Origin: an uncultured Pelagibacteraceae bacterium | GTDB lineage: Bacteria; Pseudomonadota; Alphaproteobacteria; Pelagibacterales; AG-422-B15 | Assembly (NCBI GenBank): GCA_902523455.1 | Contig: CABYZG010000003.1 | Coordinates: forward strand, 1,625-65,624 | Direction: 5' to 3' | DNA: 64,000 bases | Shown here: positions 4,345 to 26,708 of the stretch, piece after piece | Layout of the letters: each line of letters begins with the position of its first letter | Numbering within the stretch: the stretch's first letter is position 1 | The notes under the pieces: generated by a model | The model's input: only the letters and a program-made list of their open reading frames with translations | Told to the model about the DNA's origin: nothing | The model's database searches: none | Position numbers and translations under genes: made by a program

Positions 4345-4436
<92 letters not shown>

Positions 4437-16171: not shown

Positions 16172-16876
16172 TTAGCTCAGCTGCTTTAGTTTTTGAAATC
16201 CAAATGTAAACATAAACATTGAGACTAGCATGGCAATGACAATAAGTTTTTGTAAGATTACATTAAGCCTAAGTATGTCCATTGAAACAAATCTAACAAA
16301 GTTATCTCGATCATTTACTGGGTCAATTTGAGGCATATCCCCCATGAAAATGATATAAGCAACAACACTAGCGAGAAGCAAAAAAGCACCAATTGTATAA
16401 ATGTTGCTAGCTTTACTGAAATAAAAGGCCAACATTAGAAATAATACGCCAGGCAAAGTAAGTCGAAATGCAGTGAAAACGGCAAATACGTGTGCATTAA
16501 AATATAAATCGCCAGGAGTTAGACCCACCATTGCATAAAAAATAGTTGAAAGAAATATACAAATCGCACCTAACCAAGCAAAAATATAAGCCTTTTTATT
16601 TTCTTTAAAAAAGAATGGCATAAATAGAAATCCAAAACCTTGGGCAACAAATAAAAACATTGCACTGTTAAAGAAAAAAGCAGATAGAAAATTAATATCG
16701 TCAGAAAAAGTTTTATAGAAACCTAATTCACTGAAAAAATTTCGCGTAAAATCATAGCCAACTTGTGTGCTATCAAGGTGATTTCCACCCGGAAAGAGAA
16801 TTATCGCCACAAGATTCGCTAGTATAAAATACACAATTACAAATCGAGGAATATGAACTGCCCAAAAAGTATTCAT
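16172..16876 (-). CDS. Hypothetical membrane protein (DUF998-like)
   Basis: Multiple TM helices; FPGG...NFFSELG motif. Confidence 0.6.
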   Translation of the reverse strand: MNTFWAVHIPRFVIVYFILANLVAIILFPGGNHLDSTQVGYDFTRNFFSELGFYKTFSDDINFLSAFFFNSAMFLFVAQGFGFLFMPFFFKENKKAYIFAWLGAICIFLSTIFYAMVGLTPGDLYFNAHVFAVFTAFRLTLPGVLFLMLAFYFSKASNIYTIGAFLLLASVVAYIIFMGDMPQIDPVNDRDNFVRFVSMDILRLNVILQKLIVIAMLVSMFMFTFGFQKLKQLS

Positions 16877-16962
16877 AATTTATGCTGAAAAACTGGAGTA
16901 TAATATAAAAACAACGAACGCAGCCACCATCACGTACATTATTTTATTGTCAAGATTCATGA

Positions 16963-17325
16963 GTGAAATATAATATCGAACATATGGAAAATCCACAAAG
17001 ATATACAAATTATAATGATTTTTTTCCTTTCTATCTAAGAGAGCATAGTAAGAAAAGTACGAGAGTAATGCATTATTTTGGAACAATTGGCTATCAAGTA
17101 TTGTTCTGGTCACTTTTGCTAACTCAAAATTACTTGTTTTTACCACTAATCTTACTCGCGGGTTATGGGCCAGCGTGGATTGGACATTTCTTTTTAGAGA
17201 AAAATAAACCGGCTACGTTTAAATATCCTTTGTGGTCACTCATTGGTGATCACCATATGGCTTATTTGATGCTTACAGGTAAACTTAAGAAAAGATTATC
17301 TGAAGCTGGTGTGTCAGCTACTTAA
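16963..17325 (+). CDS. DUF962 / Mpo1-like protein
   Basis: FFPFYLREH, RVMHYFG, GYGPAWIGHFFLEKNKPATF. Confidence 0.88.
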   Translation: MKYNIEHMENPQRYTNYNDFFPFYLREHSKKSTRVMHYFGTIGYQVLFWSLLLTQNYLFLPLILLAGYGPAWIGHFFLEKNKPATFKYPLWSLIGDHHMAYLMLTGKLKKRLSEAGVSAT

Positions 17326-17736
17326 AACATAATACGCTGTTCCAAGAAACAATAACAACAAAGCAGTTTGAGAAAAAATCCATATGGCGCCTCTTGCTGC
17401 AGTGTTGTTGAAACAGATATGTACAATGGAATGGATCACTCTAAATAATAAATATAACCATGCACAAATTAGCAAAAAAGTGCTTTCAATTTCAATAAAT
17501 ATGATAACCCCGATTAGAAAATAAAAAATAACTGAAAACTCAAATATATTTGAAATATTATTTTTTATGATTTTTAAATGTAGCGGCGCATCTTTATAAG
17601 GCTCAATAGGAATTCCACTTTCCTCCCAGTCCTTGCCTTTACCCATTAAATTAACTGATGCTATTGTATGAATTAATCCAATAACAAAAGTTAATAAAAT
17701 AAGCCCAAGTGCTGGAACTAAAATATTAGTTAACAT
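17314..17736 (-). CDS. MAPEG family membrane protein (copy 2)
   Basis: NNISNIFEFSVIFY, RVIHSIVH; probable start MLTNIL at 17736 overlapping the upstream TGA. Confidence 0.75.
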   Translation of the reverse strand: MLTNILVPALGLILLTFVIGLIHTIASVNLMGKGKDWEESGIPIEPYKDAPLHLKIIKNNISNIFEFSVIFYFLIGVIIFIEIESTFLLICAWLYLLFRVIHSIVHICFNNTAARGAIWIFSQTALLLLFLGTAYYVLSS

Positions 17737-18173
17737 CAGATCATTAAAGAACAGGCTCGATAAGCCATCCATGCTAGGATAATCGTAGAGGGTAACCAAA
17801 ATAGCGTTCTAACTGGTAATGCAACACCAGGTATGATTTTATTATAAAATATGTGAACGATTGAGTGTAGAACTCTTAACCAAAAGAACCATGTTGCTAA
17901 CAACATAAAATACTCATCAACTGTTCCCGTTACATAAATCATAATGCAAACAGCGTAAAAGAAGATTGGAAATTCGAATAAATTTGTCAAATTTCGCTGA
18001 CTATTTTGAATTAATTCGCTGCCGTTTTCAAATGTGGGTATTTTAAAATCATCTTCTGTATTCTGCTTATCGATGACAATGGCCTTTAGTCTAAGCACTG
18101 TCCCAAAGGCAAAAACAGCCAAAGAAAGCCACAGCATATTGATGACTGGCTCAAAAATTAATTCGGGTTGCAT
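17736..18173 (-). CDS. MAPEG family membrane protein (copy 1)
   Basis: RNLTNLFEFPIFFY, RVLHSIVH; probable start MQPEL at 18173. Confidence 0.78.
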   Translation of the reverse strand: MQPELIFEPVINMLWLSLAVFAFGTVLRLKAIVIDKQNTEDDFKIPTFENGSELIQNSQRNLTNLFEFPIFFYAVCIMIYVTGTVDEYFMLLATWFFWLRVLHSIVHIFYNKIIPGVALPVRTLFWLPSTIILAWMAYRACSLMI

Positions 18174-18224
18174 AATAAACTCCTTGATTGAAATAAGAAT
18201 CCAGTAAATTATATATACTAATAC

Positions 18225-18394
18225 AGTTTTAACCATATTTAATGAAAGGAGGTGGTCTATGTCTATAGGTAGTATAGAGGAGCTTTGCTCGAGTAGTGAA
18301 ATTCCATGTGATTGTAGATGTGGAAACCTCCACTTTTTGAGTGGAGCTCCGTTTTAACTACATTAAGCCTCCATTAATTTGGGGGCTTTTTTTT
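18225..18394 (+). ncRNA. Candidate ~170-nt structured RNA carrying a 32-codon sORF (18259..18357)
   Basis: Putative TTGAAA-18-TATATA promoter, extended SD, nested helices, intrinsic terminator; GC-richer than flanks. Confidence 0.4.
18365..18394. terminator. Intrinsic terminator
   Basis: AAGCCTCC-ATTAATTT-GGGGGCTT followed by a T-run. Confidence 0.75.
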
Positions 18395-18761
18395 AGATCT
18401 TTAAATTTGGTTTAAATTTTCTTGTTTTATTTTTGTCATTGATAGCAACGTAGGAAAACTCCCCTACCGCCACTTCAACTTCCTTTTGATTCATTTCAGA
18501 ACGCATTGCGGTAATTTTGAATATCATTTTCGACTGCTTTACGGATACAATTGATCCGTAAACATTGACAAATTTACCAACATGCATTGGATTTTTATAT
18601 TTAACTTTAGATTCCACTAATACGGCATTTCCTTTTGAAACAAGCTGAGTCATATAAATACCTCCATGAGCCATTTGTTTAACGATCCAGGCTCCATGAG
18701 CCGTTCCATAAGGATTGCTATCCGGTGGTTGACATATATTTCTAATTAAAAGTTTACTCAT
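18393..18761 (-). CDS. Acyl-CoA thioesterase, hotdog fold (YciA-like)
   Basis: NPYGTAHGAWIVKQM, PMHVG, FSYVAINDKNK. Confidence 0.8.
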   Translation of the reverse strand: MSKLLIRNICQPPDSNPYGTAHGAWIVKQMAHGGIYMTQLVSKGNAVLVESKVKYKNPMHVGKFVNVYGSIVSVKQSKMIFKITAMRSEMNQKEVEVAVGEFSYVAINDKNKTRKFKPNLKI

Positions 18762-19116
18762 TTTTTTTTCTTAAATAACTTATTAGATAAATAGCTGATA
18801 CACAACCAACTATATTTGCAAAACCTTCCATTATTACAAAATCACGAAACGGTATAAAAAAATGTATAAACTCAATAAAAACACTTGTGATCAGGGCTAA
18901 GCTGATACCAAATACAAAGTCATTGTTTTTATTGTAAGCGAGTTGAGCCAAGGCGCCGAGTATGAAAAATGAGATAAAGTGTATTCCATAGTCAGTAATA
19001 AAATTTGCTACTTCTCTTACTGTAGAGTCAGAAGGCACAGGTCTCACATATGAATAATAAAGATAAAATAAATAAAAAAAGAAGATTAGTCGAAGAGGAT
19101 TTGCTAAAATGCTCAT
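18754..19116 (-). CDS. VanZ-like membrane protein
   Basis: HFISFFILG, IEFIHFFIPFR, ANIVG. Confidence 0.75.
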   Translation of the reverse strand: MSILANPLRLIFFFYLFYLYYSYVRPVPSDSTVREVANFITDYGIHFISFFILGALAQLAYNKNNDFVFGISLALITSVFIEFIHFFIPFRDFVIMEGFANIVGCVSAIYLISYLRKKNE

Positions 19117-25302: not shown

Positions 25303-26708
25303 ACAGGTCTGAAATTATTAAAAATTATTCAGATATAGTAGTTACTAAATTTTCATCTAAAATGTGGTCAACTTTTTTAGTGCTCGGGATTATAGTGTAT
25401 TTAATCATAGCAATTTTAAGCCTCGACATATTGCAGATTCATAAAAAATGGAGTCCTGAAAGAGCTTCATTGTTTGCCCTCGACACATATGCACATAAAG
25501 ACCATGTCACAATGAAATGGAGTGAACCAGATGATATAATTATATCCTTTGAAGGAAGCAGGTGGTCTCAGTATGTTGGCCCCTATCAAAAAAGTGACGG
25601 TCTTCCAGAAAGGTATCCTGAATGGACTTCCATAGGTCCAGAGGGTGAAACAAAAATAAGTTTTAAAAATGGAGGGTTTGCAAATCTATACGATGATAAA
25701 GTTACAATAGAAAACTGGCCAGACACCAAAGAAACACTTGTTTTTCGTCTTGATGCACAAGGTAAGCCTTACGTTGAAAATGTAGATAATCTCCCAAAAT
25801 GGATAAGGGTAACGGAAAATAAAATAGAGGTTAGACCATCTCTTTACGAAAGAGTTCAAGTTTATTCAAAAAAAGTTGAAGTACATAGGTACAATCTTGG
25901 TTGGAACTATTTCTGGTTTGACTTTGACAGTCCTTTAGAACCATATGGAATTTGGAATGCTATTTCACTTTCATTCTCAGGCGATAGAGTTGACCCCAAT
26001 ATTTCAAATTTTTCGCTTCTAATTCAAGAATTTCTAAATAATGATATGTGGCATCATGGACAAATATTGTGGGCTTTATTAGAGACAATTTTTATGGCTC
26101 TATTGGGCACCCTACTAGCAGCTCTTCTGGGTTTTCCTCTGGCATTTTTTGCAGCTTACAATGTAACGCCTTTTAAATTTGTTCGAACGATATTAAGACG
26201 GTTATTTGATACATTAAGAGGCATCGATTTTTTGATTTGGAGCTTAATTTTTTTAAGAGCCTTCGGACCAGGACCATTTACTGGAATATTTGCTATTGCA
26301 ATTACAGATACAGGAACTCTTGGAAAATTAATGTCTGAAGCAATAGAAAACACTGAAGAAAAGCAACAAGAAGGTGTAGAGTCTACGGGAGCGAATAAAA
26401 CTCTTCAACACAGATTTGGAATTATACCTCAAATACTTCCTATTTTTATTTCCCAAACTCTTTACTACTTAGAATCAAACACGAGAGGAGCTGTTATTAT
26501 AGGTGCCATGGGCGCAGGCGGCATAGGTTTACAATTACTTGGAGCAATAAATACGGGTACCAGTTGGGAAAATGTTATGTATATGTCATTATTGATTTTA
26601 GGAGTTGTTATTTTCATGGATACAATGTCCGCAAAAGTAAGAAGAGCTTTGATTGGTGATGAAACGCTAGGAGCAGAATTACAATTGGCAAAAATGGCAA
26701 AAAAATAA
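25299..26708 (+). CDS. phnE: Phosphonate ABC transporter permease with large periplasmic insert
   Basis: GTLGKLMSEAIE, ESNTRGAVIIGAMGAGGIG; ATG 25299 overlaps the upstream TGA. Confidence 0.9.
   Translation: MNRSEIIKNYSDIVVTKFSSKMWSTFLVLGIIVYLIIAILSLDILQIHKKWSPERASLFALDTYAHKDHVTMKWSEPDDIIISFEGSRWSQYVGPYQKSDGLPERYPEWTSIGPEGETKISFKNGGFANLYDDKVTIENWPDTKETLVFRLDAQGKPYVENVDNLPKWIRVTENKIEVRPSLYERVQVYSKKVEVHRYNLGWNYFWFDFDSPLEPYGIWNAISLSFSGDRVDPNISNFSLLIQEFLNNDMWHHGQILWALLETIFMALLGTLLAALLGFPLAFFAAYNVTPFKFVRTILRRLFDTLRGIDFLIWSLIFLRAFGPGPFTGIFAIAITDTGTLGKLMSEAIENTEEKQQEGVESTGANKTLQHRFGIIPQILPIFISQTLYYLESNTRGAVIIGAMGAGGIGLQLLGAINTGTSWENVMYMSLLILGVVIFMDTMSAKVRRALIGDETLGAELQLAKMAKK

Follow-up and report, generated by a model that had tools for sequence, protein, structure and literature searches.

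The element described here lies in a short spacer between two minus-strand genes, those for a 4HBT thioesterase and for the first of two tandem MAPEG proteins, within a 64,000-nt stretch of DNA that we call the window, by which we mean the whole of that stretch. Exact-protein look-ups and a one-genome-per-species scan assign the host of the window to the Pelagibacteraceae (SAR11), represented mostly by single-cell genomes and marine metagenomes. On its plus strand the spacer carries an extended Shine-Dalgarno (SD) sequence, a small open reading frame (ORF), a rod-like stem and an intrinsic terminator (Table 1), and a check of the letters confirmed the positions that the original prediction, made from the window sequence, had given for the SD, the ATG, the ORF, the helices, the local hairpin and the ACCTCC motif. 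The gene cluster around the spacer (16172-19116 in the window, and loci L003-L107) is conserved across SAR11 lineages and encodes a 234-aa membrane protein, an Mpo1-like protein, two tandem MAPEG paralogues, the 4HBT thioesterase and a VanZ-like protein, a composition suggestive of a module related to lipids or acyl-CoA; there is an 8-nt overlap between the genes for the thioesterase and the VanZ-like protein. A mechanical ORF list draws the MAPEG frame out to 166 aa, reaching 18236, which we rejected as an over-extension; the public gene calls start at 18173.

Table 1. Features at and around the element, in window coordinates
Feature	Position	Strand	Remarks
MAPEG gene (first of two tandem)	start codon 18173	minus	public gene calls, 145 aa; SD AAGGAG at 18185-18180
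Spacer with the element	18174-18392		219 nt; flanked by two minus-strand genes, thioesterase and MAPEG
Candidate small-gene promoter	18184-18212	plus	-35 TTGATT at 18184-18189, 17-nt spacer, -10 AATTAT at 18207-18212
Perfect TATAAT	18213-18208	minus	likely -10 of the divergent MAPEG gene; ATTATA invariant in all lineages
Extended SD	18244-18258	plus	GAAAGGAGGTGGTCT (= GAAAGGAGGUGGUCU); directly before the ATG at 18259
Small ORF	18259-18357	plus	MSIGSIEELCSSSEIPCDCRCGNLHFLSGAPF; 32 codons plus TAA
C-terminal tryptic peptide of the small-ORF product			C/YGNLHFLSGAPF
Rod-like stem	18269-18361	plus	from codon 4 of the ORF to 4 nt beyond its stop
Rod P1, GUAGU/ACUAC	18269-18273 with 18357-18361	plus	
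Rod lower stem	18279-18294 with 18336-18350	plus	
Rod apical stem	18302-18309 with 18318-18325	plus	
3' block	18322-18351	plus	GGAAACCUYCACUUUWUGAGUGGAGCUCCG; 30 nt, 3' arm of the rod, encodes GNLHF[LM]SGAP
Anti-SD-like ACCUCC	18326-18331	plus	
Local hairpin CTCCACT/AGTGGAG	18328-18346	plus	competing hairpin; within the 3' block
Intrinsic terminator	18365-18394	plus	stem AAGCCUCC/GGGGGCUU, 9 bp at 18365-18388, 5 G-C pairs; T8 run
4HBT thioesterase gene	18393-18761	minus	convergent with the small gene; stop codon 18393-18395
SDR operon	19143	plus	

Copies of the element, 107 in total, were drawn from SAR11 genomes and marine metagenomes, and every locus examined has the element at the corresponding position. 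The thioesterase led to 37 species-level SAR11 genomes, all of which carry it at 70-100% nucleotide identity. Further contigs were reached through MAPEG homologues, and 50 metagenome contigs through a two-block DNA pattern that itself presupposes the SD and 14 nt within the 3' block; statements about the invariance of the SD and of the 3' block are accordingly made from the gene-anchored sets only. The neighbour order, MAPEG (minus), element (plus), thioesterase (minus) and VanZ (minus), is constant in the 37 genomes and the 50 metagenome contigs, while the neighbouring proteins diverge across lineages to amino-acid identities as low as 43% for MAPEG, ~40% for VanZ and 67% for the thioesterase. 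Because these proteins diverge while the neighbours stay fixed, the element is better conserved than the proteins that adjoin it. The viral contigs searched yielded no copy. Two metagenome contigs (L055 and L056) have a Nextera adapter (CTGTCTCTTATACACATCT...) fused right after the small ORF, at about 185-226 of their reverse-complemented first 226 bases, which is an assembly artefact of untrimmed reads.

We take the SAR11 16S rRNA 3' tail to be the canonical one (GAUCACCUCCUUUCU, with the free tail GAUCACCUCCUUUC). The SD forms 14 contiguous pairs with the free tail and a 15th with the G that closes helix 45, and the resulting duplex is worth -24 to -26 kcal/mol against the canonical sequence, assumed to hold for SAR11. 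That sequence is established for Bacillus subtilis, and a CCUCCU set at a constant distance from helix 45 is almost universal (PMC6107228). The GGAGG core stands 6-7 nt from the AUG, the canonical spacing. In the 37 genome loci found through a neighbouring gene the SD is invariant; the only variants encountered, G to A at 18255 (in two separate clades) and U to C at 18258, both leave the pairing intact or strengthen it. The window contains the exact 15-mer a single time, and its site is the strongest on both strands of the whole 64 kb, in agreement with the original prediction that it would exceed any other SD there (about -25 kcal/mol, against about -13 for the next best). The second-best anti-SD match, at 25554, lies within a gene and was set aside as coincidental.

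The stretch around the SD, 5' of the rod, is A/U-rich, and opening the SD costs 4-6 kcal/mol, to be set against the approximately -25 kcal/mol gained with 16S rRNA; 9-12 kcal/mol are needed to open the stretch from the SD through +16, the foot of the rod included. We rejected a translational switch, proposed earlier, in which the ACCUCC motif (ACCUYC across lineages) would sequester the SD: the fold that is forced to do so is 5-12 kcal/mol worse than the rod in six lineages, and the SD itself is cheap to open. A 5' hairpin, AACCAU/GUGGU, predicted in warm-water lineages was likewise discarded, as it is lost in cold-water lineages and in GGUGAUC variants. A tandem direct repeat, GTCTAT GTCTAT (18255-18266), spans the start codon and is complementary to a conserved RUAGAU in the apical part of the rod (18314-18319), where a second contact with the initiation region is possible.

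None of the 107 copies has a disrupted small ORF; AUG and TAA are shared by all of them, and they encode 22 peptide variants of 32-33 aa. Plus-strand frame 0 is free of stops in 23 of 23 unique ORF sequences, whereas each of the other five frames has stops in many or most of them. Changes in ORF length are 3-nt indels, except in the comparison of warm-water with cold-water lineages, where a 1-nt indel between GUAGAUA and UGGAAAC is offset by upstream indels, with the consequence that lineages differ in the frame used for part of the peptide's middle but agree in that of the C-terminus. In the consensus, MSI.SI is followed by approximately 15 unconstrained residues, then by GNLHF[LM]SGAP and a single variable residue before the stop. 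Changes of either kind, synonymous or non-synonymous, are almost absent from the conserved blocks, and those in the middle are mostly non-synonymous and frame-shifted. The features expected of a small coding ORF led by an SD were found together at this locus (canonical SD spacing, with frame, start and stop conserved in relatives), and this pattern of conservation suggests that the ORF is translated, or at least selected to be translatable.

The peptide is acidic or neutral and has no hydrophobic stretch of at least 15 residues. The original prediction had described it as Cys-rich and put forward a metal-binding micropeptide; the description holds for the lineage of the window, whose peptide has five Cys, and fails elsewhere, since none of the five is conserved, all are gone in cold-water lineages and one is retained in several warm-water ones. 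With no conserved Cys, the metal-binding idea is ruled out. Neither Pfam nor NCBIfam contains a family that matches the peptide, phmmer, run against 1.84 billion representatives, recovered nothing beyond a 39-aa call of this ORF and two spurious Cys-repeat proteins, and a literature search found the peptide strings in no paper. Gene callers mostly overlook the ORF. Where it is called (L051 1313-1432; protein P0042), the start is placed at an upstream in-frame ATG inside the SD (MKGGGP...), and the 39-aa product so obtained is probably a wrong call.

Almost the whole ORF is contained in a secondary structure of exceptional stability. The minimum free energy (MFE) fold of 18225-18394 on the plus strand has an energy of -58.6 kcal/mol (z = -5.0; none of 200 shuffles was as stable), and that of the minus strand -37.9 kcal/mol (z = -3.2). 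The five helices proposed earlier, GUAGU/ACUAC, GGAGCU/AGCUCC, GCUCGA/UUGAGU, AGUG/CACU and UUCCAU/GUGGAA, are all present in the MFE fold. This architecture is shared by every lineage, with energies of -49 to -67 kcal/mol for the element as a whole, and the rod taken alone has z = -4.1 to -7.3 in 11 lineages. Among lineages in which the neighbouring proteins are 40-68% identical, just two positions of the 3' block vary. This invariant 3' arm pairs with a variable 5' arm, in which the partners change from U.G to C-G and from G.U to A-U, and a change at either of the two variable positions of the block is matched by one in its partner, C-G alternating with U-A at one and U-A with A-U at the other. 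Realigning with a covariance model gives 92.6% paired cells, compared with 37-45% in slid controls, and three rod pairs show double changes and ten one-sided changes, counts that derive from an alignment fitted to the rod model, in which many pairs are invariant and the double changes represent few events. The covariation score is 0.159 against 0.118 in shuffles, and was reached by none of 500. We conclude with moderate confidence that the rod is kept by compatible and some compensatory changes, as judged from the aligned copies. Between lineages the 5' arm is displaced by 1-2 nt, and for that reason RNAalifold does not recover the rod from a plain MAFFT alignment; on this unfitted alignment it picks instead the local hairpin in the 3' block, whose closing pair switches among A-U, U-A and G-U, and both the rod and the local hairpin may matter.

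A second line of evidence for constraint on the RNA comes from codon usage. Between the window and distant lineages the small ORF keeps the same codon at 12 of 13 and 16 of 19 identical residues (P = 7e-4 and 1e-3), whereas in eight neighbouring genes 45-49% of identical residues keep their codon in the same comparison. The C-terminal block retains minor codons (CTC, 5% of its synonymous set; CCG, 7%; TTG, 13%; AAC, 23%; CAC, 26%). The element has a G+C content of 40%, the window 33%, and elevated G+C is a signature that has been used to find structured RNAs in SAR11 (Meyer et al. 2009). The almost frozen synonymous sites of the conserved blocks imply that the RNA itself is under selection too, and the conserved residues could then be by-products of RNA constraint.

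The account that we hold to be probable, if only by a modest measure, is that the spacer contains an independently transcribed, SAR11-specific small gene on the plus strand, whose RNA of approximately 170 nt, made from a promoter of its own and ended by an intrinsic terminator, is both translated and structurally constrained and whose long SD anchors ribosomes beside the rod. A rival account is a translation-gated riboregulator, in which the invariant 3' block with its anti-SD-like ACCUYC and hairpin is the functional part, the peptide is irrelevant and the ORF is kept only for ribosome transit, which would unzip the rod and thereby tie access to the block to translation. We regard this as unlikely, albeit deserving of serious weight. 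It would account for the almost invariant synonymous sites and the retention of minor G/C-ending codons in the conserved blocks, for a peptide middle that is read in different frames between lineages, for the coincidence of the L/M change and of the variable last residue with co-varying RNA pairs, and for a stop codon placed exactly at the foot of the rod; a combined sRNA and sORF has, moreover, been proposed in SAR11 for another motif (Stav et al. 2019, PMC6429828). Against it, the C-terminal block has retained its frame, although ribosomes reading in frame +2 would pass through the rod as well.

The strength of the SD raises the separate question of how it compares with initiation elsewhere in this genome. 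Our survey covers the 65 ORFs of 120 aa or more in the 64 kb, whose SD pairing averages -3 to -4 kcal/mol with best values of -12 to -13.5 kcal/mol. Mean pairing of SD regions in the window is -3.1 kcal/mol against -2.5 and -2.8 kcal/mol in mock regions (P = 0.3-0.5); about 11% of genes reach -8 kcal/mol or lower, compared with 2-3% of mock regions, and about 10-20% have usable SDs. The closest published parallel is rpsU, which encodes bS21, in Bacteroidia, where the SD takes up almost all of the 16S tail in a helix of 9-13 bp, worth -14 to -21 kcal/mol (McNutt et al., NAR 2023, PMC9976891); it is the only strong SD in an SD-poor genome and senses ribosomes with a free 16S tail (PMC9976891). 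The element resembles rpsU in being a single gene with an extraordinarily long SD in an SD-poor setting, as checked over 64 kb only, and its helix of 14-15 bp is of the rpsU type in length. It differs from rpsU in being alphaproteobacterial, in encoding an orphan peptide of 32-33 aa, with no Pfam or NCBIfam match to a ribosomal component, in place of bS21, and in having its ORF inside a rod.

By analogy, the RNA could serve as a sensor or sponge for ribosomes with a free 16S tail, its maximal SD favouring binding to, or translation by, one particular ribosome state, or could hold ribosomes between the 14-bp anchor at their rear and the rod. We judge this decidedly improbable. An SD helix at or beyond the length and energy of that of rpsU is consistent with such a role, as are SD-region pairing that barely exceeds the mock regions and the presence of bS21 in a Pelagibacter phage, but a tenth to a fifth of the genes in the window (~10-20%) do have usable SDs, the product is not a ribosomal protein by Pfam or NCBIfam, and the maintained frame points to complete translation rather than to trapping.

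The original prediction gave the element its own putative promoter and terminator; the terminator was borne out, being called by a terminator scan and conserved in its stem, while the promoter is reduced to a weaker, conserved candidate found by eye. A consensus promoter scan called no plus-strand promoter at the element, with the TTGATT/AATTAT candidate falling below threshold. TTGATT and ATTAT are invariant in all lineages, yet the candidate is weak and its conserved bases are common to the MAPEG promoter and 5' UTR. The transcript start predicted from it is near 18219-18225. The plus-strand -10 and the MAPEG TATAAT overlap almost completely, and the two divergent promoters could exclude each other. 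At the other end, the terminator scan calls the hairpin, G+C-rich and followed by a U-tract as in an intrinsic terminator, on the plus strand only, and its stem varies among relatives yet stays paired (AGCCCCC/GGGGGCU, AACCCUC/GAGGGUU or GGGGGUU). Position 18370 is T in the window copy but C in the metatranscriptome contigs and in nearly all relatives. The terminator abuts the stop codon of the convergent thioesterase gene, with A- and T-tracts on both sides in cold-water lineages, and is probably bidirectional, serving both genes.

The element is found in many marine metatranscriptomes, at a depth like that of the neighbouring genes in unstranded Logan contigs, a level that does not bear out the high expression proposed earlier. 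These contigs run past the predicted start into the 5' end of MAPEG, and one crosses the terminator; contig ends track sequence conservation and not transcript ends, and we did not use them for placing the ends of the RNA. [quoted passage not shown] Besides the layout, a weak resemblance to Phe_leader (23.8 bits), a stop codon 7 nt from the terminator stem in warm-water lineages and the one metatranscriptome contig that spans the terminator are consistent with this proposal. The Phe_leader score is, however, less than half of the Rfam threshold of 55; there is no run of regulatory codons and no residue that is consistently repeated across the peptide variants; the stop-to-stem distance is 10-11 nt in cold-water lineages; the rod and the terminator do not compete, and no anti-terminator is formed; and the next gene (18393-18761) is convergent, with no same-strand gene downstream. 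The attenuator reading fails because there is no gene to control, and we consider it highly improbable.

With contigs that are unstranded, it is the features of the DNA that favour the plus strand for the element: it has the sole open frame, the SD stands at canonical spacing, and the SD variants keep or improve the pairing with 16S rRNA; on the minus strand these variants would move the sequence away from a 16S mimic, and the element would there lie between the terminator and the invariant MAPEG TATAAT and should be largely untranscribed. Folding energies point in the same direction for warm-water lineages, where G.U pairs favour the plus strand by 8-15 kcal/mol, and not for cold-water lineages, where the minus strand folds about as well as the plus. 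It is barely credible that the element instead regulates MAPEG, either from the minus strand as an intercistronic or leader element or as a DNA operator, with the ORF and the apparent SD being the mirror of a 16S-tail-like sequence: contigs do join the element to the 5' end of MAPEG, the minus strand does fold (z = -2.5 to -5.3) and CCACCUCCUUUC could pair with the MAPEG SD AAGGAG, but only the plus frame is open in all lineages, a perfect TATAAT separates the element from MAPEG, the warm-water lineages fold better on the plus strand, and the R (G/A) variation in the SD fits pairing with a U of 16S rRNA and not mimicry of the tail, in which case most copies would carry C where 16S has U.

No described family accommodates the element, which belongs to the class of structured small-ORF RNAs. 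At gathering thresholds, Rfam (release 15) finds only a tRNA in the whole window; this tRNA-Ser (anticodon TGA, 4345-4434) is the sole RNA gene that Rfam and ARAGORN identify in the 64 kb. A permissive Rfam search gave SpF51 (26.4 of 50 bits) and Phe_leader (23.8 of 55 bits), both driven by the terminator. The original prediction would have been abandoned on an Rfam match, the lack of a transcript or the lack of conservation in relatives; we found no Rfam match, the sequence is present in metatranscriptomes, and ORF and structure are both conserved. The element matches no described motif of Meyer 2009 or Stav 2019, which have other neighbours or peptide motifs; HIMB5 sORF-1 and sORF-3 are undescribed.

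Several known systems share part of this organization. Like SgrS/SgrT, RNAIII/hld, SR1/SR1P and the SAR11 HIMB5 sORF-2 motif (PMC6429828), the element is a short, self-contained transcript with a conserved small ORF and a conserved structure, and like sORF-2 it is confined to SAR11 and is not placed to regulate a neighbour in cis. It differs from sORF-2 in its peptide motif (that of sORF-2 contains PPDT) and from dual-function RNAs in that its ORF spans the whole structured part instead of lying beside it. Type I toxin mRNAs such as hok and tisB also present a small ORF in a compact folded mRNA with its own promoter and terminator; unlike them, the element encodes no hydrophobic helix, its SD is exposed (4-6 kcal/mol to open) and maximal, and no antisense RNA gene is evident. 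Ribosome arrest peptides such as SecM, TnaC and ApdA/ApdP form a further comparison class, in which, as in our peptide, the last ~10 residues by the stop are invariant and those upstream are variable. The element departs from that class in having no cis-regulated gene and no known arrest motif, and RNA constraint explains the conservation at least as well. In the cryIIIA mRNA of Bacillus thuringiensis, a 5' stabiliser termed STAB-SD carries a complement of the 16S tail, GAAAGGAGG, near its 5' end that is not used for initiation. The element likewise has GAAAGGAGG near its 5' end, and a bound 30S subunit could protect the RNA; unlike the STAB-SD, its SD is followed by an AUG at canonical spacing.

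Returning to the small gene that is both translated and structurally constrained, we propose the following sequence of events. A strong SD can offset mRNA structure, and over-long SDs are aided by A/U-rich sequence upstream. Here the SD would lie in an easily opened, A/U-rich 5' stretch just upstream of the rod, and since the ~-25 kcal/mol helix exceeds the cost of opening and such a stretch is present, we read the SD as an anchor for the 30S subunit. The SD-16S helix would hold the subunit next to the rod and pay the 9-12 kcal/mol for opening its base, in a genome with little SD pairing elsewhere; the ribosome would then unzip the entire rod and stop exactly at its 3' foot. The output would be the peptide, of which only MSI.SI and GNLHF[LM]SGAP are conserved, and each round of translation would transiently free the invariant 30-nt 3' arm. 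As the useful product we rank the peptide first, the freed 3' arm second and ribosome occupancy third. A more speculative version, which we think rather improbable, makes the RNA a read-out of ribosome state, in which the invariant 14-15-nt SD captures the entire free 16S tail, a frame that serves for passage only unzips the rod, and the 30-nt block is released. Were this version correct, it would parallel the autoregulation of rpsU/bS21 in Flavobacteriia, but in Alphaproteobacteria and with an RNA as its output.

SAR11 bacteria are among the most abundant organisms in the ocean, and in their streamlined genomes regulators are scarce and hardly any DNA is superfluous. When a 219-nt spacer in such a genome surpasses the adjacent proteins in conservation, it must have some function. 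The element unites three features that rarely occur together, namely an SD that pairs with the whole 16S tail in an SD-poor genome, a reading frame that compensating indels defend although most of the peptide drifts, and a rod conserved at the RNA level. Understanding its workings would show how initiation is tuned in SD-poor bacteria, and the element would supply a very strong native ribosome-binding site for SAR11 genetics. For the biology of SAR11 itself, it might add a new small protein or a dual-function RNA.
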